Counted from the stretch's first letter, positions 1,197 to 8,017 are shown. The stretch: 36,777 bases of DNA from Candidatus Hydrogenedentota bacterium (GCA_045863335.1 BTVY01000057.1:1-36777), one strand, 5' to 3'. Program-made: numbers and translations. The notes: a model not told the origin generated them from the letters alone.

Positions 1197-2516
1197 TCAG
1201 GACTTTCGCCGATTTCTGACCAGGATCAGTATTGCCACCGCAGCTATAATGATTGCCACAACGATCCCGTACGTGAGCATACTTGATCGCTCTTCTCCGG
1301 GCTGCAGCACAACCTCTCCAGCGGCTTCCTGGCCCGCGCCTTGTGTCGGTACGTCAGGGGCCGCGTCTTCGTTACTCTCAGGAGCGGAGTTCTCTACCAT
1401 CGAAGATGGGTCAGAGGTCTCTGCGCGTTGATCGGCATCGTCTGACCCTGGAGTGGCCATGGCGGTATCCACACGCGCCCCCGTACCCACCGCGAAATGG
1501 ACTCCTTCGCTAGACTGCAGCGGGTATCCCTCGCCTACCAATTCCGACGAATCGACCGTGTGTTCCCCCCCGCCCGCACCATATTTGTGTGAGTAGTCCA
1601 ATGTGACGCTGCCGGATTGGGGATCAAATGCATACGTTGATACGGGTGCGTAGTACTCATCGTAACGACGAAAGTGGAGCATGTCGGCCTCTTCATCGAT
1701 TTCCGATTGAAAGACTCGTAAATACTGCCCACTCCCCTCCGGGCCCCTGATAAACACAAGGGAAGGCCAACCACCCTCGTTGTCACGAATGAATCCAGCA
1801 AACGTTCCATAGGGATGAACCGACAAGTCATCCTCCATGTTAATCCTATGAAGCACGACTTCTTCTGGAGTTTTCCGTATGACAAAGGAACTGGCATGTG
1901 CTACGTCAAACAGCTCCTTTTGTTCGCGGGGAACCCCCGTTAACCGATATTGTCCAAACACGTACAGCACTCGCCCGTCTTTCAAGTCAATATCTTGGTG
2001 GACGACTGAAAAGAACGCCTTGGATGACATTGCATCCAGGCGAATCTGCTCAAACTCTTCAGAGCTTAGTGCGGATGTTCCCTCGATCCACTGCAAAGTG
2101 TCGTTCGACGGGTACCGGATCATGACATCGTCCAAGCTCCCCGTAGCTAACATCTGGGCCACCATTTGGGGGACGATCTGGTCGGCTTGGATAACGCTAT
2201 CTTCCATTCGGTCCCACACGCCTTTTGCCCAAAGGGAAATCTCTTGAGAGATTCTGGTCTGTTCTTCTTCGCTGAGGCTTTCGTAGTTCTCCGGTAGCTT
2301 GGATTCGCCTCGATATTCCGCGTTCGCGGCCTCGAAACGATTCGACAACGTCTGAAGATACGCCAGAGCGCCGTCCGGGCTATCAAATTCTCTTGTCGCT
2401 TGCCCGCAAACAGGAAGTACGCCCAACAAACCGCCTACAACCAAGAGAACGATGCGTGGTGTTATCGGCGTTACAAAGGCCTTCCGGTTAGCTGGCGGAA
2501 AATGGTGAAGAATCAT
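1197..2516 (-). CDS. Exported, C-terminally membrane-anchored hypothetical protein; candidate immunity protein
   Basis: GGAGGA 8 nt before the ATG at 2516, next to the upstream stop; N-terminal hydrophobic signal (IVLLVVGGLLGVLPVCGQA), acidic linker, C-terminal TM helix plus RNRRKS. Confidence 0.75.
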   Translation of the reverse strand: MILHHFPPANRKAFVTPITPRIVLLVVGGLLGVLPVCGQATREFDSPDGALAYLQTLSNRFEAANAEYRGESKLPENYESLSEEEQTRISQEISLWAKGVWDRMEDSVIQADQIVPQMVAQMLATGSLDDVMIRYPSNDTLQWIEGTSALSSEEFEQIRLDAMSSKAFFSVVHQDIDLKDGRVLYVFGQYRLTGVPREQKELFDVAHASSFVIRKTPEEVVLHRINMEDDLSVHPYGTFAGFIRDNEGGWPSLVFIRGPEGSGQYLRVFQSEIDEEADMLHFRRYDEYYAPVSTYAFDPQSGSVTLDYSHKYGAGGGEHTVDSSELVGEGYPLQSSEGVHFAVGTGARVDTAMATPGSDDADQRAETSDPSSMVENSAPESNEDAAPDVPTQGAGQEAAGEVVLQPGEERSSMLTYGIVVAIIIAAVAILILVRNRRKS

Positions 2517-2521
2517 TGTCA

Positions 2522-4672
2522 CTATCCTCCGTGGTTCACAACCACGTTGTTGGCATAACGATTGCCGCGGGCTCTCAAGGTATTATTGCCCAGCGAGCCT
2601 TGTTGTGGCGGTGGCGGCCTCGGTATGGATATATCTTCCGCCTCTGTAAGTGTCCCGTAAGGATTTTCGTCCAGATCTTTCACTCCGTCTTCATTGTAGT
2701 CTCGCCAATTGTGAGTACCGCCGACACGGTGGCCTTGGGTGTCTAGTGGATTACCGTTAGCATCTTGTGGACAAAGGGCTAAAATTGGCTCGGTATACCA
2801 AAACCGTGCCCAGCACGCCGACCCGGAAGCGGGTGGCGAGGGGCTGCGTGCTGGGAGCATTAGGAAACCTGCGTCGGCTGCAACATCCTGGTTGCGCTGT
2901 GTCGTTGACATATGGACCACTGCGCCCTCCTTGATCCTTTGTGCAACGCGAACCTCCTGAGCGGTTCCGGGATCCCAATATGCTACCAACTCTATGCGGT
3001 GATGCCCCGAGTATGCTGGGTTGGCCCCAGTTTCCACGGGTGCAGAGCGGTATTCGATGGTCAGATCCTGCGTAATCCCAAATCCAGCCGTGTAGGGTCC
3101 TGCAAGAAGTGATTGTGAAACTGCCGTCGGGCCGCTACCCCATACTTCGACAAACACTTCGTCCGGAGGATTTGAACCCGATACCACATTCACGGCAAAT
3201 GTCGTAAACGTCAACGTTCGCTGAGTAACGTTTTGGGTCATCGCTGCCGTAATGCTGCCAATTGTATATGCACCGTAAGCAACCGCTGCTTCGATTTCAA
3301 CGGTGTTTGCATAGGGTTTCCACCAGTATAGCCGGTCAGTTTGGCCGGCATTATACTTGTCGTAACCTTCCATCCGTCTCATGCCATGTACGTATGCGTT
3401 TGACGGTGGATAGAGATGGAGATGTTGGCAGGCACGCCGATAGTACCCACCACTGTCATTAGGAAGATCACCTTGATCAGCCAAGTGGACTTTCATGGCA
3501 AATCGAGCGTGTTCTTGCCAATCCCATACCGTCTTCCGACTACGATAGTTCTCATCTGTGAGTTGCAGTAGTCCAAAGCCATTCGTCCCCCGCCCCTGAC
3601 TGTCCAAGGCTTCCCACAGCGGGTAATTGGCGTGCGAAGCGGTTCCAGAACCGCTTCCTGGCCAGTAGTGGCGGCCATCAGATTCTTGCATTGCCTGAGC
3701 ACTAATCATTCTCGAAACTTCCGCTTGCACGTGAGCCCTGTCTTCCGCACTGGAATAGGATCCATTCCCACTCATGTCGTCGTTTGGTATCCCGTCATCG
3801 TTGAGATCGACGTCCAGGAAACTCGAACCGTTGGGCCTCTGGAAGTAGCCAGTCGGAGTCGTGCTTGAAAGAACTGAAATCATCGGAGAGGTGAGCGTGC
3901 CACCGACAATATACACGCCCGAAAACCCCGCCGTAGTTCCCGCGACGAGGGTTTGCTTCTCTGGGTCGGCGTTCGGAACCTGGACTTCGACGGTCAAACG
4001 CTTGAGGTGGCCGCCGAAGATCCCCTCATTTGTCACATCGTTGTTTTGATCCCAGGCGATCTGCCACGTGTTCTGGGCAAGCTGCCCGGAATCGAGAGCG
4101 CCGGGATGGACGTACCCGGTTGCGGGCGCATCTGGATACTCGAGAGCATTCGCGCCAGCCGCATCACTTCCAACCACGAACCGGTACGTTGTTCCCTGCG
4201 GAATACCGGTGGGGAGGTTCAATCGAACCGTCAGTTCAGGCATTGCACATGGGGTAAACGTTTGTGTCGCGGAATCGTAATGGCCCAAATCAATCGCGAT
4301 GTTGCTGCCCTGTTGGATAACCACCCATCCGCCCTGTCCGTCGGGGACGAGGAAATCGACATCCGCCAAGTTCAGCTTGTTGTGATTCACCGTTTTGACC
4401 GCGTATCGCACTCCGGTCGGCGTAGTTAGCGTCGCCGTGACACTGACGACTTGCCGGGTTTCGGTGTTCTCGATAGTTTCCACCGCGTATTCCGCCGACA
4501 CCGTTGCCGGTAATTGCGGCTCGAACTCATACGTAAGCACATCTTCTAAGTCTTCGCCGGGCAACAGATAATTCCGGCCGTTGTCGGTTCCCAGCATCAA
4601 CTCATGGTTCCGGAAATGGGCGGTCAGCGCGATGCTGGGGGACTGCGGATAATAAATGGGGACAGTAACCAT
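2522..4672 (-). CDS. Toxin/effector-like protein with a lytic transglycosylase (SLT/GH23-like) domain; its first 7 codons (MVTVPIY) come from the REP hairpin, so it is probably 5'-truncated
   Basis: SLT-like motifs AMQES, GFGLLQL, WDWQEH, KYNAG and C-terminal RYANNV; Dx[DN]xDG loops; no signal peptide; more AT-rich than its flanks. Confidence 0.65.
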   Translation of the reverse strand: MVTVPIYYPQSPSIALTAHFRNHELMLGTDNGRNYLLPGEDLEDVLTYEFEPQLPATVSAEYAVETIENTETRQVVSVTATLTTPTGVRYAVKTVNHNKLNLADVDFLVPDGQGGWVVIQQGSNIAIDLGHYDSATQTFTPCAMPELTVRLNLPTGIPQGTTYRFVVGSDAAGANALEYPDAPATGYVHPGALDSGQLAQNTWQIAWDQNNDVTNEGIFGGHLKRLTVEVQVPNADPEKQTLVAGTTAGFSGVYIVGGTLTSPMISVLSSTTPTGYFQRPNGSSFLDVDLNDDGIPNDDMSGNGSYSSAEDRAHVQAEVSRMISAQAMQESDGRHYWPGSGSGTASHANYPLWEALDSQGRGTNGFGLLQLTDENYRSRKTVWDWQEHARFAMKVHLADQGDLPNDSGGYYRRACQHLHLYPPSNAYVHGMRRMEGYDKYNAGQTDRLYWWKPYANTVEIEAAVAYGAYTIGSITAAMTQNVTQRTLTFTTFAVNVVSGSNPPDEVFVEVWGSGPTAVSQSLLAGPYTAGFGITQDLTIEYRSAPVETGANPAYSGHHRIELVAYWDPGTAQEVRVAQRIKEGAVVHMSTTQRNQDVAADAGFLMLPARSPSPPASGSACWARFWYTEPILALCPQDANGNPLDTQGHRVGGTHNWRDYNEDGVKDLDENPYGTLTEAEDISIPRPPPPQQGSLGNNTLRARGNRYANNVVVNHGG

Positions 4673-4677
4673 TTATT
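4651..4677 (+). repeat. RAYT-associated REP-like hairpin AATAAATGG-GGACAGTAA-CCATTTATT (copy A, downstream of RAYT)
   Basis: 9-bp perfect stem with a 9-nt loop; identical to 6210-6236 and to the reverse complement of 5540-5566. Confidence 0.92.
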
Positions 4678-4684
4678 GGGACCC

Positions 4685-4691
4685 CCTCCTT
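4685..4691 (-). promoter_or_regulatory. Shine-Dalgarno AAGGAGG upstream of the REP-embedded ATG at 4672
   Basis: AAGGAGG(GGG) 12 nt upstream of the ATG; also present in copy B with 7-nt spacing. Confidence 0.55.
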
Positions 4692-4750
4692 GATACTTGA
4701 TGCCGGTCGGGTAAATCCGATGCAACCCGCGCACCCGTGATCCTTTTGTA

Positions 4751-4779
4751 ATACTAACACTGATACCCGGAAAGCGCAA
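4751..4779 (-). promoter_or_regulatory. Outward-facing sigma70-type promoter TTGCGC-N17-TAGTAT with extended -10 TG
   Basis: -35 at 4779-4774, -10 at 4756-4751; both hexamers, the TG and the 17-nt spacing are conserved in copy B while the spacer differs. Confidence 0.65.
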
Positions 4780-4802
4780 TGGAGTCGCGTGCTGGCTCCC
4801 AT

Positions 4803-5504
4803 TCACCGGCGTTTGCGGCGGACGCGATCTCTGCTGCCGTGGGGGCGGCCGCGGGGGATGGCGCGGACGCGGCGGCCCAGGTAGGTCTCCACTTTGCTGA
4901 GAAAGGAGTCGCTGCCGAGGGGACGGCCCGTGCGCGTGTGCAGGCGAAGGAGGTCCACCTCGGGGCCGGAATCGGCAATAGCGACAAGCGTAGCTTTCCA
5001 TTTGGCGGCGGGCATCTCCTCGAACCACGCGCCGAGGTCCAACAGCCGGGCCGGGTCCCCCCCTTCGCCGCAGTGGGCGGCCGCACTGGACCACGCGTGG
5101 TCCCATGCCAACGCAGTCATCGCCGCGCGCACGGGATTGAGTTCCACGTACGCCGTCGCGTTGTGCGCGTAGTTCTCATCCATGGGGCAGGAGTAAAACC
5201 GGCTTTGCCAGAGGTGGCCCAGGCGCCCGTGGAGGCGATGAATATACTGGGCATACATGAGGTGCGTGCGCCCCATGGTACTCGCCAGCGATTCCTCCCG
5301 CTCCGGCGTGACGACAAGGTGGACGTGATTCGTCATGAGGCAGTACGCCGACACCGCCAAGCCATGGCGTTGCGCGCTCTCCCGCAGAAAGGAGAGGTAG
5401 ACGCGCCGGTCGTCATCGGTGAAGAACACGTCTTGCCGGTAGTTGCCCCGCTGCGTGACGTGATGAGCCACTCCCGGGAGAACAATTCGCGCCTGCCGTG
5501 CCAT
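4803..5504 (-). mobile_element. rayt: REP-associated tyrosine transposase (RAYT / TnpA-REP, Y1 HUH transposase)
   Basis: MARQARIVLPG start, HHVTQRGN, AYCLMTNHVH (HUH), LWQSRFYS, YVELNPVRA (catalytic Tyr), WSSA; flanked by inverted REP hairpins. Confidence 0.93.
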
Positions 5505-5539
5505 GGGGGAGACGATAGCACCAAGCCGGAATCGGATGC

Positions 5540-5578
5540 AATAAATGGTTACTGTCCCCATTTATTGTCCCATTTATT
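5540..5578 (-). repeat. REP-like hairpin upstream of RAYT (inverted relative to A and B) plus a partial tandem duplication GTCCCATTTATT
   Basis: AATAAATGG-TTACTGTCC-CCATTTATT at 5540-5566, followed by GTCCCATTTATT at 5567-5578. Confidence 0.9.
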
Positions 5579-5590
5579 CCAGATCGCCTA

Positions 5591-5627
5591 AGAACTCCCT
5601 CGAAGGGAATCATTCCCGTCCAGGAGA
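5591..5627. repeat. Palindromic element P, copy 2, downstream of the 120-aa gene
   Basis: AGAACTCCCTCGAAGGGAATCATTCCCGTCC(AGGAG); 28/31 identical to 95-125. Confidence 0.75.
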
Positions 5628-5667
5628 TGCTACTTGTGCTTACCTCTACAAGTGCAGGTACTTATCA

Positions 5668-6030
5668 TTAATGCTTCTCCAAGTTCTTAAATATGTCGCT
5701 GAGGAAATCCTGATCTGGATCGTTAAGCCTTGTACGTTTATCATCCTTTGCATAAATAAGTGTTAGTGTGCCCTTGTTGCCTACATCCTCGATTGCGACA
5801 AGTCCGTCGAGGATGAGCAGGATGTTGTAGGCTACTTGGTCGCCTGCCATCTGAACTACCTTGGCAACTCGCTCACGGTCTTTTTCGGGAAGATGGTTGT
5901 ACCAAGCACTGAGCTCCTGCAACTCACTATCTGGCCGACGTCCAGGCGGAACCCGTAGCGAATCTTGAATGCCTCGAGTCGCCCCCGAAACCACCTTCTT
6001 CACTGCATCTACGAACTCTAGTGCGTTCAT
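5668..6030 (-). CDS. Small helical hypothetical protein; candidate polymorphic-toxin immunity protein
   Basis: AT-rich; FVDAVK...PPGRRP...WY...LILDG...LND pattern recalled from proteins found after Rhs toxin tips; ATGA overlap with the upstream toxin-tip stop. Confidence 0.7.
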   Translation of the reverse strand: MNALEFVDAVKKVVSGATRGIQDSLRVPPGRRPDSELQELSAWYNHLPEKDRERVAKVVQMAGDQVAYNILLILDGLVAIEDVGNKGTLTLIYAKDDKRTRLNDPDQDFLSDIFKNLEKH

Positions 6031-6209
6031 TTTCTAAATGCTCGAGCATACATCCGCATGTTCAATTCAATTAATTCGAAGAGATCCCTATTCGGGGCAT
6101 TCGTGTACCTTCGCAAATTGTTAACGTCAAGTGCAAGTAAACTGCGGGGCTTGCCTGTGTACCTCCCGTGGACTACGGGGATGGCGCGGTGCTCGTTAGT
6201 GGGCAGTAG
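6027..6209 (-). pseudogene. Truncated polymorphic-toxin C-terminal tip (60 codons: LLPTNEHRAIPVVHGRYTGKPRSLLALDVNNLRRYTNAPNRDLFELIELNMRMYARAFRK)
   Basis: Open frame with no start codon of its own at the 5' end, beginning at the REP edge and ending with an ATGA overlap onto the next gene; resembles the C-terminal half of HNH-like Rhs tips (LPxxEH...TNAPN). Absent from the ORF track. Confidence 0.6.
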
Positions 6210-6236
6210 AATAAATGGGGACAGTAACCATTTATT
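6210..6236 (+). repeat. RAYT-associated REP-like hairpin (copy B)
   Basis: Identical to 4651-4677. Confidence 0.92.
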
Positions 6237-6238
6237 GC

Positions 6239-6245
6239 CCTCCTT
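6239..6245 (-). promoter_or_regulatory. Shine-Dalgarno AAGGAGG 7 nt upstream of the REP-embedded ATG at 6231
   Basis: Minus strand reads AGGAAGGAGG-GCAATAA-ATG; opens the mini-ORF MVTVPIYSTAH* (6231-6196). Confidence 0.6.
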
Positions 6246-6296
6246 CCTGAATCGTGATACCGCTCGGGTGACCCGTGCATCCGTGATCCTTTTGTA

Positions 6297-6325
6297 ATAC
6301 TAGCACTGCGGTCCGAAATGCGCAA
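6297..6325 (-). promoter_or_regulatory. Outward-facing sigma70-type promoter TTGCGC-N17-TAGTAT (copy B)
   Basis: -35 at 6325-6320, TG extension, -10 at 6302-6297; same geometry as copy A. Confidence 0.65.
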
Positions 6326-6427
6326 CGGAGTCGTGCGGGGGGTGCGTTTGCGGCGGACGCGGTCTTTGCTGCCGTGGGGGAGGCCGCGAGAACGATTGTC
6401 TCAGCACCGCGCCGTTTTCCCTCATTG

Positions 6428-7732
6428 TTACCGGCTCTTCGGGGCTTGGTTCGACTCTATTCCTGAGTTTGCCATCGCCAGTTGCTGGCCTTTTGCGCGG
6501 GCTTCCTGGGCGGCGCGGAGGGCGGTGAAGGCGACGGCGCTGTTGGGGTAGTGGTTGGCGAGGCGGTGGTAGGCGGCGAGGCCTTCGTCGATCTTCTGGT
6601 GGCGGACGAGTTCGCTGGCGTAGTGGAGGTAGGTTTCGACGGTTTCCTGGTAGGAGTTGCGTTCGGGATGTTCGCGGATGTGGCGTTGTTCGGTGAGGAT
6701 GCGTTCGGCCCAGTGGCCGGCGCTTTCGAACTGGCCCGCGCTGCTCTCGACTTTGCAGAGCATGAGCCGCGCGCGGTACACGTCGGGCGTGAGGGTCGTG
6801 CGGTTGGCCAGGGTTTCGAGGGCGGGTCTGATGAGCTTCCAGTAACCTTGCGCGCCCGCTCCGCCGGGGGGCGGCACCATTTCGCGTTCCAACACCCGGA
6901 GGTAGCCGTAACGGCTCCGCCACGGTTCTTTCTCGTCTTGGAGCAGCGGCGTCAGCCCGTCCACGGCCCGGCGGCGCGTCTCGCTTTGCCGGAGTGCGTC
7001 GATCATGGGTTCGACTTTGCGCAGGAAGGGATCGAATTCGAGGACCCGGCGCTCGGCGTCGGTGGCTTCGCGCTGGCGAATGGAACTGACCTTGATGGGG
7101 AGATTCAGATAGGTGCCAACCCATTCGCCGGCGAGGTCCAATCGGCGGTTCGCCCAATGGTAGATCGGGAGAAGGAGTGCGTTGTGCGTGGTATCCAGTC
7201 TCGGGTACCGAAGCGCCAACTCATTGCTCGCGTGCATCCGGAAGGGGCCGGGCAAGTAGTTGTCGGGGTGGGCGAGGGTGGAGAGGGCGATCACGGCGAC
7301 GAATTCGTTGCTTCCCTGGGAAAATCTGAGTAGTTTTCCGGCAATGTCCGTTCCGTCGTCGCCGGGGTGCTTGAGTGACACGTCGTGCAGCGCGACCAGC
7401 AGCGCGTCGATTTCATTCGTTTCGGGTTCCAGGAAGTGGTCGTAGAAGGCTTCGCGCATCCGGTCCGTCATGAGGACATTGATGTCGAATTGAAGCAGGT
7501 GCAGGTTGCCGAGGGCTTCGTCTGCCAACTCGGGATCGTCGCTGCGGTACGCGCGGATTTGAGTTAGGAGATCATATGCCGCTCGCATGGGGTAGCCCGC
7601 GGCGATCATGTCCAAGGCTTCGTTGCGTTGCCGGATGAGATCGGCCAGTTCCTGTCCCGGAGATGGCGAAGCGAGTACGGATGCAAGGATTAGCAGCAGT
7701 GCGGTCCCGCCTACACGGTTCAATCTGGACAT
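6428..7732 (-). CDS. Exported alpha-helical (HEAT/TPR-like) hypothetical protein
   Basis: Start MSRLNR followed by a signal peptide (ALLLILASVLASPSPG); C-terminal TPR-like helix AYHRLANHYPNS. The ORF extension to 7870 reads through repeat R1. Confidence 0.75.
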   Translation of the reverse strand: MSRLNRVGGTALLLILASVLASPSPGQELADLIRQRNEALDMIAAGYPMRAAYDLLTQIRAYRSDDPELADEALGNLHLLQFDINVLMTDRMREAFYDHFLEPETNEIDALLVALHDVSLKHPGDDGTDIAGKLLRFSQGSNEFVAVIALSTLAHPDNYLPGPFRMHASNELALRYPRLDTTHNALLLPIYHWANRRLDLAGEWVGTYLNLPIKVSSIRQREATDAERRVLEFDPFLRKVEPMIDALRQSETRRRAVDGLTPLLQDEKEPWRSRYGYLRVLEREMVPPPGGAGAQGYWKLIRPALETLANRTTLTPDVYRARLMLCKVESSAGQFESAGHWAERILTEQRHIREHPERNSYQETVETYLHYASELVRHQKIDEGLAAYHRLANHYPNSAVAFTALRAAQEARAKGQQLAMANSGIESNQAPKSR

Positions 7733-7739
7733 CTTTGGG

Positions 7740-7771
7740 GAACATCCCCCTTTATCCCCCTTCGAAGGGGG
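7740..7771 (-). repeat. Repeat family R1, copy 2
   Basis: GAACATCCCCCTTTATCCCCCTTCGAAGGGGG is a reverse-complement variant of 26-58. Confidence 0.85.
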
Positions 7772-8017
7772 AGTTTTGCTCCACGTGGTCCCTGTGAGAT
7801 TCTGGCGCACGGGCGCGCTCGTGGGGTTCGTGTTGAGACTGACGATGACATACGCCAGCGCGTGTGTCAAGGGGTTATAAGTAGCTAGTAGAGGGATCTC
7901 TGTGCTTGTTGAGCGAAAGAGGGTGCGCGCCGTCGGGGGGGCGGTCGGAGGCCGGCGCGATTGGTGAGTTCCCTGAGGTCCTTGGGAATGTTGGGCCGCC
8001 GGGGCGCGTTTCTATAC

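Follow-up and report, generated by a model that had tools for sequence, protein, structure and literature searches.

Repetitive extragenic palindromic (REP) sequences and REP-associated tyrosine transposases (RAYTs) have been described together as REPtrons, in which a Y1 HUH gene lies between inverted short palindromic repeats that are also found elsewhere in the genome (PMC3333891, PMC3733652 and PMC8049555, each as excerpted). The excerpt of PMC8049555 treats the value of REP/REPIN-RAYT systems to the host as an unsettled question, and mentions an older speculation by which REPINs might be promoters and RAYT the corresponding factor. Here we describe a RAYT-like element in a 36,777-nucleotide stretch of DNA from a Candidatus Hydrogenedentota bacterium (GCA_045863335.1, BTVY01000057.1:1-36777; hereafter the window). 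On the minus strand of this element a putative outward promoter, which we refer to as P-out, is situated between the RAYT stop codon and the right-end REP (copy A), and a second copy (copy B) accompanies a RAYT remnant in the same window. We consider it probable, from a comparison of these and related copies, that P-out is a real outward promoter of the sigma-70 type, and that its carrier is a promoter-leader-REP unit which has become dispersed in one Hydrogenedentes lineage.

The element resembles a REPtron in its layout, as the RAYT gene lies between inverted copies of its palindromic repeat both in the window and in its homologues. It differs from REPtrons, which comprise tens to hundreds of extragenic repeats and a single vertically inherited RAYT, in that the 6.75-Mb genome to which the window belongs has only 10 copies of the REP (three of them in the window, against 0 expected) and two full RAYT genes, together with one cut by a contig end and several remnants. 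It differs further in its transposase, for which the best NCBIfam model is REP_Tyr_transpos at 61.9 bits, under the cut-off of 80, and in the promoter module inserted between gene and REP. With a low REP copy number and several RAYT copies, the system is more like an insertion sequence (IS) than a typical RAYT/REP system.

Outward promoters are themselves known from insertion sequences, Pout of IS10 being one example, and IS-borne promoters activate neighbouring genes; for the IS200/IS605 family the excerpted source gives co-transcription (ISTosp1) and a Pout of antisense direction (IS200), but no 3' outward promoter (PMC9330008). Like the outward promoters of insertion sequences, P-out appears to be a complete promoter that lies near one element end and reads outward. 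Unlike them, it is carried by a RAYT/REP-type Y1 element rather than by a DDE insertion sequence, and it belongs to an additional module, placed after the transposase gene and before the end hairpin, that also persists, and probably spreads, where the transposase is absent. Promoters that are themselves mobile have been described as well (Matus-Garcia et al. 2012, PMC3488235, as cited in the excerpt of PMC8049555). These too are short repeats with promoter features found upstream of unrelated genes within a genome, whereas the repeat described here is tied to a named mobile system, ends in a 3' REP, exists both attached to a RAYT gene and free, and has a long conserved leader. A transcript from P-out would cover the right-end hairpin and enter the flank, as do the right-end RNAs of IS200/IS605 elements (the omega RNA or reRNA of TnpB; PMC4615843 and bioRxiv 10.1101/2023.03.14.532601, both as excerpted); unlike those elements, this one is accompanied by no TnpB or IscB gene, and its leader by no conserved RNA structure or Rfam match. 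Full-text searches of literature outside subscription-only papers returned no description of a defined promoter in a RAYT/REP system, and in particular none of an outward one placed between the RAYT gene and the REP, or of promoter-REP units dispersed without a RAYT gene.

In integrons, the promoter Pc lies within intI/attI beside an array of attC cassettes, and the enzyme is the IntI tyrosine recombinase. The initial annotation of this stretch had described P-out as a Pc-like promoter in the RAYT 3' end, maintained for transcription through the REP into a cargo. The resemblance to Pc is one of direction, as both are promoters by a recombinase gene that read away into adjacent genes, and the analogy fails on every other defining feature. 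P-out is outside the reading frame, the RAYT stop codon (4803-4805) being 23 nt upstream of the -35 hexamer; the enzyme is of the Y1 HUH type; there is no attI/attC array, the only repeats being REP hairpins; and the downstream genes are ordinary chromosomal genes of the host that are unrelated to one another, with copy A abutting a 5'-truncated open reading frame (ORF).

Conservation of the putative promoter block

A sigma-70 promoter with an extended -10 consists of a TTGACA-like -35 hexamer, of which TTG is the most important part, a spacer of 17 ± 1 nt and a TAnnnT -10 hexamer, with TG one base upstream of the latter. Both copies in the window can be read in this way on the minus strand, as TTGCGC-N17-TAGTAT with an extended -10 TG (4735-4779 in copy A and 6281-6325 in copy B, each with the conserved box that follows). 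As had been annotated, the hexamers, their spacing and the 16-mer box immediately downstream are identical in the two copies while the spacers diverge, 7 of the 17 positions being mismatched. Over 317 aligned columns copies A and B share 79% identity, and the 22-mer formed by TAGTAT and the box has two matches in the window against 0.00 expected (100 shuffles). Each module has the same order: -35, spacer, -10, box, a variable stretch with a small hairpin, a purine tract, and REP. At copy A the module accounts for the 125 nt separating the RAYT stop codon from the right REP, and at copy B it lies between a RAYT 3'-end remnant of ~47 nt and the third REP. Transcription would start ~7 nt past the -10, near 4744 and 6290.

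This form of the module (type 1, ~125 nt) has seven copies in the window's genome, two on contig C57, one each on C3, C32, C77 and C21, and a divergent one on C2. BLAST found 13 further copies in three other genomes of the same genus, and 19 of the 20 BLAST-found copies (four genomes) include the promoter region, the remaining one being cut by a contig end. A second form (type 2, ~215 nt) is present in two further genomes of the genus; it has TTGTCT-N17-TGCTATTCT, with TGC before a TATTCT -10, followed by a leader of ~165 nt unrelated to that of type 1, a purine tract, and then the same REP. The 11 type-2 copies in our set were found with the leader alone as the query and were thus ascertained independently of the promoter. 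At least 19 type-2 copies were found in all, and the modules, counted by their flanks, occupy 38 sites in six genomes of one Candidatus Hydrogenedentes genus.

We found the promoter-like features to be selectively conserved among these homologues. TAGTAT is kept in all 19 type-1 copies, TTG in 17 and TG in 16, and the spacing is always 17 nt; among the type-2 copies, TGC is present in 11 of 11, and TTG and TATTCT in 10 each. In the joint set of 30, therefore, TTG and TG are each found 27 times and the 17-nt spacing throughout, with the base between TG and -10 varying (G, C or T). Majority-base fractions in type 1 are 0.58 in the 15 nt upstream, 0.93 in the -35, 0.82 in the spacer, 1.0 in the -10 and 0.94 in the box. 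Measured as information over the 30 copies of both types, TTG carries 1.79 bits and the -10 1.65 bits (positions 1, 2, 4 and 6 high; 3 and 5 low) versus 0.41 bits for the 22 nt upstream; the whole -35 carries 1.25 bits and its positions 4-6 carry 0.71. By this comparison, the positions kept are those that sigma-70 would contact. The divergent copy on C2 keeps TTGCGC-N17-TGC-TAGTAT and lacks the box, as does type 2; type 1, type 2 and the C2 copy share no part other than the -35 to -10 block, and the leaders are unrelated.

The host, as judged from its own upstream sequences, uses the same promoter architecture at its tRNA genes and at the RAYT gene itself. TTGNNN-N16-18-TANNNT is found upstream of 24 of 45 host tRNA genes versus 1.9% of 5000 random 120-nt windows; these sites are mostly 40-47 nt from the mature 5' end, 10 of the 24 have TGn, and one reads TTGCGC-N17-TACACT. 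The RAYT gene has a promoter-like site of its own, P-in, at the opposite end of the element from P-out. Its arrangement recurs in 23 of 27 RAYT homologues of the order (52-100% identity; loci L047-L076), in which the -10 ends 6-7 nt before the ATG and the -35 (TTGCAT or TTGACA) lies in or just past the 3' arm of the left REP. Because the -10 is this close to the start codon, the RAYT mRNA looks leaderless across the order. Whatever binds or extrudes the REP could then control the RAYT gene, which suggests simple autoregulation. Thus, of the initial proposal of a conserved, Pc-like outward promoter, comparison of the 30 copies and of the host sites upholds a candidate sigma-70-type pattern, and the Pc-like, cargo-serving part is not supported.

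Several observations weigh against P-out as a promoter, or limit how far the comparison can carry it. The spacer is also well conserved, at 1.31 bits over 30 copies (its centre being variable), as is the type-1-specific box of 16 nt after the -10, at a majority fraction of 0.94; a promoter alone explains neither, and part of the conservation may be due to the copies being young. P-out matches the E. coli consensus only weakly, at 7 of 12 positions plus the TG (3/6 in the -35 and 4/6 in the -10), and a promoter scan of 4400-6600 with that consensus returned 0 sites, a negative which says little because the same scan also misses P-in. Many of the modules are close kin and some sites are segmental duplicates, so that the copy counts overstate independence and are to be read as descriptive rather than as independent trials. 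The orientation of neighbouring genes does not settle the matter by itself: the first downstream gene has the same direction as P-out at 28 of the 38 sites, the opposite direction at six and no call at four, and the first upstream gene is equally biased (28 same, five opposite, five no call; calls by a simple codon-usage caller trained on the window's genome, plus Pfam). The orientation bias is real, and strand-biased insertion or selection against the antisense orientation may account for it; because the upstream neighbours share it, we dropped it as proof of promoter use. Copy A, moreover, points into the truncated ORF, which may be a dead gene. All of the support is comparative, and comes from one genus of uncultured, metagenome-assembled bacteria. 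Contigs from an RNA run contain 31% of sampled words, are broken at repeats and do not cover 2000-4612, and contigs of this kind cannot show starts or strands.

The conservation of the spacer, nearly as high as that of the -35 (1.31 versus 1.25 bits), and the negative consensus scan would also be expected if the block were a feature of the DNA rather than a promoter: a binding site for RAYT or a host protein, or a decayed left end (inverted REP plus RAYT promoter), with copies alike through youth. A weak colinear similarity between the left end (REP, P-in and the first RAYT codons) and the module points the same way, with a local alignment score that 12.2% of 1000 shuffles attain for copy A and 3.1% for copy B. 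When a profile of the type-1 module was run over 30 RAYT loci with nhmmer, however, no left end was found, the only matches at E < 0.5 being the modules themselves, and a block that had decayed from P-in would be a promoter all the same; on these comparisons, the module as a decayed left end and RAYT promoter is not supported. Conservation in the block tracks the sigma-70 contacts, including the free base between TG and -10 and the low positions 4-6 of the -35, and distant RAYT/REP elements work without the block. We therefore regard a non-promoter role of the block, whether as a DNA-level feature or as a decayed left end, as improbable.

Dispersal of the promoter-leader-REP unit

A full transposase gene is present at few of the 38 sites, and the rest have a RAYT remnant of varying length or none. 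Most copies are deletion derivatives or dispersed units without a transposase, and these keep everything from just 5' of the -35 to the REP. Six type-1 solo copies start 0-18 nt 5' of the -35 (64-83 in query coordinates, in which the -35 is at 82), and pairwise homology among type-2 copies typically spans from -22..-42 to +173..+193 relative to the -10. No copy truncated between the -35 and the REP was seen among those found, and the distance between the promoter and the REP end is 70-190 nt in all copies. On three contigs of one genome (G004 contigs C20, C27 and C29; loci L040-L043) there are at least four nearly identical mini-elements of ~420 nt, each consisting of an inverted REP, RAYT codons 153-233, the promoter module and a REP in that order, which suggests recent mobilisation of a transposase-less, promoter-bearing unit.

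Among 30 loci with RAYT homologues in the same order, the module is present at the four closest. At ~20 of the 26 more distant loci (<=72% identity), by an informal count, a REP-like hairpin lies <=~45 nt from the stop codon and there is no module. The module is on this comparison a lineage-specific insertion, and it is dispensable for the RAYT/REP pair as such, since the distant RAYT elements go without it. A metagenome scan with a pattern anchored on the box and the REP returned 0 loci, and one with a 19-mer returned four loci, all of one unrelated sequence and hence a chance match; a scan of genome contigs gave no copies beyond those already known. With regard to the REP itself, the right REP at one locus (L013, G005:C90) is duplicated in direct tandem just past the module, the two copies being 5 nt apart, and repeated half-REP arms are found downstream of the hairpin at several distant RAYT loci.

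In the reading that we favour, P-out would be a working sigma-70-type promoter with an extended -10, located in a lineage-specific non-coding module that follows the RAYT stop codon in full elements. The transcript would cross the REP hairpin, which is weak, A/U-rich and without terminator features, and continue into the flank, so that the element would provide its neighbour with transcription rather than silence it. The sequence features, their selective conservation, the promoter architecture of the host and the distribution of the copies are observations; promoter activity, read-through of the REP and any benefit to host or element are inferred. The features of the window on which this reading is based, and those that surround them, are listed in Table 1.

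Table 1. Positions of the two modules, the RAYT element and adjacent ORFs in the window
Feature	Position	Strand	Basis or remark
Copy A, -35 hexamer of P-out, TTGCGC	4774..4779	-	Read from sequence
Copy A, spacer TTTCCGGGTATCAGTGT, 17 nt, ending in TG-n (extended -10; TGT)	4757..4773	-	Read from sequence
Copy A, -10 hexamer TAGTAT	4751..4756	-	Read from sequence
Copy A, conserved box TACAAAAGGATCACGG	4735..4750	-	Type-1-specific; predicted start near 4744 lies inside
Copy A, variable part of leader	4692..4734	-	CGGGT/ACCCG arms at 4729-4725 and 4712-4708
Copy A, purine-rich Shine-Dalgarno-like tract AAGGAGGGGG	4682..4691	-	5' of REP ATG; putative role
Copy A, right-end REP hairpin AATAAATGG-TTACTGTCC-CCATTTATT, 27 nt	4651..4677	-	ATG at 4672-4670
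Copy B, promoter	6281..6325	-	TTGCGC 6325-6320; spacer ATTTCGGACCGCAGTGC 6319-6303; TAGTAT 6302-6297 (TGC before)
Copy B, box TACAAAAGGATCACGG	6296-6281	-	Identical 16-mer
Copy B, REP hairpin (third REP)	6210..6236	-	
Copy B, remnant of the last ~15 RAYT codons	6344..6390	-	Alignment
RAYT-like Y1 (HUH) transposase gene, 233 aa	4803..5504	-	ATG at 5504; Pfam Y1_Tnp 1.5e-14
P-in, promoter-like site of the RAYT gene	5512..5541	-	TTGCAT 5541-5536 (overlaps REP arm); 18-nt spacer; TGC-TATCGT 5517-5512; 7 nt to ATG
Left-end REP	5540..5566	+	Inverted relative to right-end REP
716-aa ORF opening at the REP ATG	2522..4672	-	5'-truncated piece of larger gene family
120-aa ORF downstream of copy B	5668..6030	-	Between two inverted REPs; codon-usage score positive

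The start of the RAYT gene given in the table would correspond to M20 of a longer ORF, as suggested by the homologues.

Leader sequences and RNA structure

A structured leader, with CGGGT...ACCCG arms, had also been proposed. The arms are present in both copies, with a 12-nt loop in copy A; in copy B (6275-6271 and 6269-6265) one base alone separates them, so that the stem there is really CGGG/CCCG with a 3-nt loop. Comparison across homologous ends does not bear out a conserved structure. The hairpin is paired in 68.8% of cells, and its covariation is at the level of shuffled alignments (0.065 versus a shuffled mean of 0.064, with 241 of 500 shuffles as high). RNAalifold, applied to 16 type-1 leaders, found no structure kept except the REP hairpin, which is paired in 95% of cells. 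The window copies show no excess stability, as they fold no better than dinucleotide shuffles in the sense orientation (z = +0.26 and -0.43) or on the opposite strand (z = +0.68 and -0.16), and an Rfam search gave no match up to E = 1. The type-2 leader is well conserved in sequence and has a consensus fold of only -8.07 kcal/mol over ~190 nt, with a double change at 3 of 34 pairs, each in a single sequence.

What the leaders keep so well is the first 16 nt in type 1, the first ~25 nt in type 2 and, in both subfamilies, the purine tract before the REP. Conservation of this kind invites a different account of the same promoter, in which it gives rise to a discrete ~100-190-nt RNA, made up of leader, REP and a short 3' tail of variable sequence, on behalf of the element; such an RNA might control RAYT or transposition or might act on REP DNA or RNA, with expression of the neighbour as a by-product. 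The 5' leader is strongly conserved within each subfamily (0.94 in the type-1 box; GAGTACTCAATGCCTGGATCG... in 11 type-2 copies), the purine tract is kept right before the REP in both types, and copies that have no transposase keep the entire unit, promoter, leader and REP. There is also a precedent among TnpB elements of the IS200/IS605 family, for which RNAs are known that begin inside the element's 3' end and extend past its right end (PMC4615843, as excerpted).

The structural results speak against such an RNA, since neither leader shows covariation, folding is at shuffle level and Rfam has no match for it; the two leaders are, in addition, unrelated in sequence and length. The REP hairpin is without terminator features, and the 0.9-kb element contains no TnpB- or IscB-like gene. 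Its obvious antisense target, the left REP, would not be part of the RAYT mRNA, because this mRNA appears to be leaderless and to start downstream of the left REP; we therefore rejected antisense pairing between an RNA of the right REP and the left REP in RAYT mRNA. Taken together, an element-end RNA seems to us rather unlikely as the role of the module, and we retain the view that P-out is an outward promoter whose transcript would run on into the flank.

Other features of the leader region were considered in addition. In type 2 (e.g. L124:1240-1428, minus strand), the 5' end of the leader, AGTACTCA, is predicted to pair with the REP 5' arm and loop, TGGTTACT, over seven pairs, which would open the REP hairpin in the RNA; no compensatory changes were found for this pairing of leader and REP loop. 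A leader peptide was rejected, as ATG or GTG follows AAGGA in some copies (A and B among them) and GAG, ACG, GCG, ACA or AAG is found there in others. A terminator scan gave no terminator-like site at the REP on the minus strand. On the plus strand, a terminator made of a hairpin and T-run at 6265-6283 was likewise rejected, as it is found in copy B only, the T-run of copy A being 14 nt from the stem.

Neighbouring genes and the possible reach of the promoter

Downstream genes do not form a common cargo: in an all-against-all BLAST of the downstream ORFs, the only matches were between a few duplicated loci. Neighbours in the same direction that could be named with Pfam are DUF7684, an alpha/beta hydrolase, Lgt (twice), a sulfatase, two RHS-repeat proteins and a weak CarboxypepD_reg. 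As exceptions, one copy faces an FGE-sulfatase gene, and at another a TPR fragment on the other strand comes first.

The 716-aa ORF that follows copy A represents the C-terminal portion of a gene family whose member at a locus of the same genus (L078) is an open frame of 1348 aa. Homology between the two begins at residue 8 (4648), at the edge of the REP, and the preceding seven residues are REP sequence. Identity is 80% over the first ~260 residues that they share and 43.7% over the full alignment, which leaves the rest much less similar. The module on C32 abuts another fragment of this gene family, and two other copies lie in or before RHS-repeat genes.

The position of the REP ATG, 7-12 nt past an AGGAGG-like tract, raises the question of whether the module is a start-codon cassette, which would join a promoter to the purine tract as ribosome-binding site and to the ATG of the REP, and would express truncated genes such as the 716-aa ORF as proteins with an MVTVPIY fusion. 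Homology to the larger genes starts at the REP edge both at copy A and at the RHS copy, and the REP ATG is in frame at three of 19 copies, namely copy A (716 aa), the copy on C3 (344 aa) and the one before an RHS-repeat ORF (>507 aa). Three of 19 is, however, the rate expected by chance, and the gene piece abutting the C32 module is out of frame. The ATG is part of the palindromic stem of the REP and occurs in both orientations, and it is absent from some type-2 copies. In an orthologue of the C3 gene without a module, homology starts 5 nt past the REP, and a native AGGAG and ATG follow 40 nt further on; because this module-free orthologue shows the native start codon, the in-frame REP ATG at C3 is an accident. 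We consider a role of the module in supplying start codons to be very improbable.

The remaining features of the window are less directly connected with P-out. None of the 120-aa, 716-aa and 441-aa ORFs has a match in Pfam, NCBIfam or PADLOC. An 11-bp hairpin at 5631-5660 on the plus strand, between the 120-aa ORF and the left REP, is terminator-like by scan. A different double-hairpin repeat of 38 nt (GGGGAACATCCCC... CCCCCTTCGAAGGGGG) lies at 7737-7774 and has 129 copies in the genome at <=5 mismatches, with a ~50-fold depth spike in sequencing runs; it represents a genuine REP-like family of high copy number that has no relation to the RAYT-linked hairpin.

Returning to P-out, these comparisons suggest that one lineage of RAYT elements has gained a module whose best-conserved part is a putative outward promoter, and which outlives the transposase and is found, across six genomes, before ~40 genes that are unrelated to one another. 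With an active promoter, such repeats would be portable transcription starts, rather than only terminators or RNA stabilisers, and insertions would be less polar than expected. A further step, which we advance tentatively and think doubtful at present, is that the unit is a free-standing mobile promoter cassette, copied or moved via its REP end by RAYT in trans and kept for restoring or rewiring transcription of the gene next to which it inserts. As the REP also supplies the -35 of the apparently leaderless RAYT promoter, a REP-binding enzyme could control both promoters. If this were true, the unit would be a concrete and testable case of REP and RAYT as a promoter-plus-factor system.

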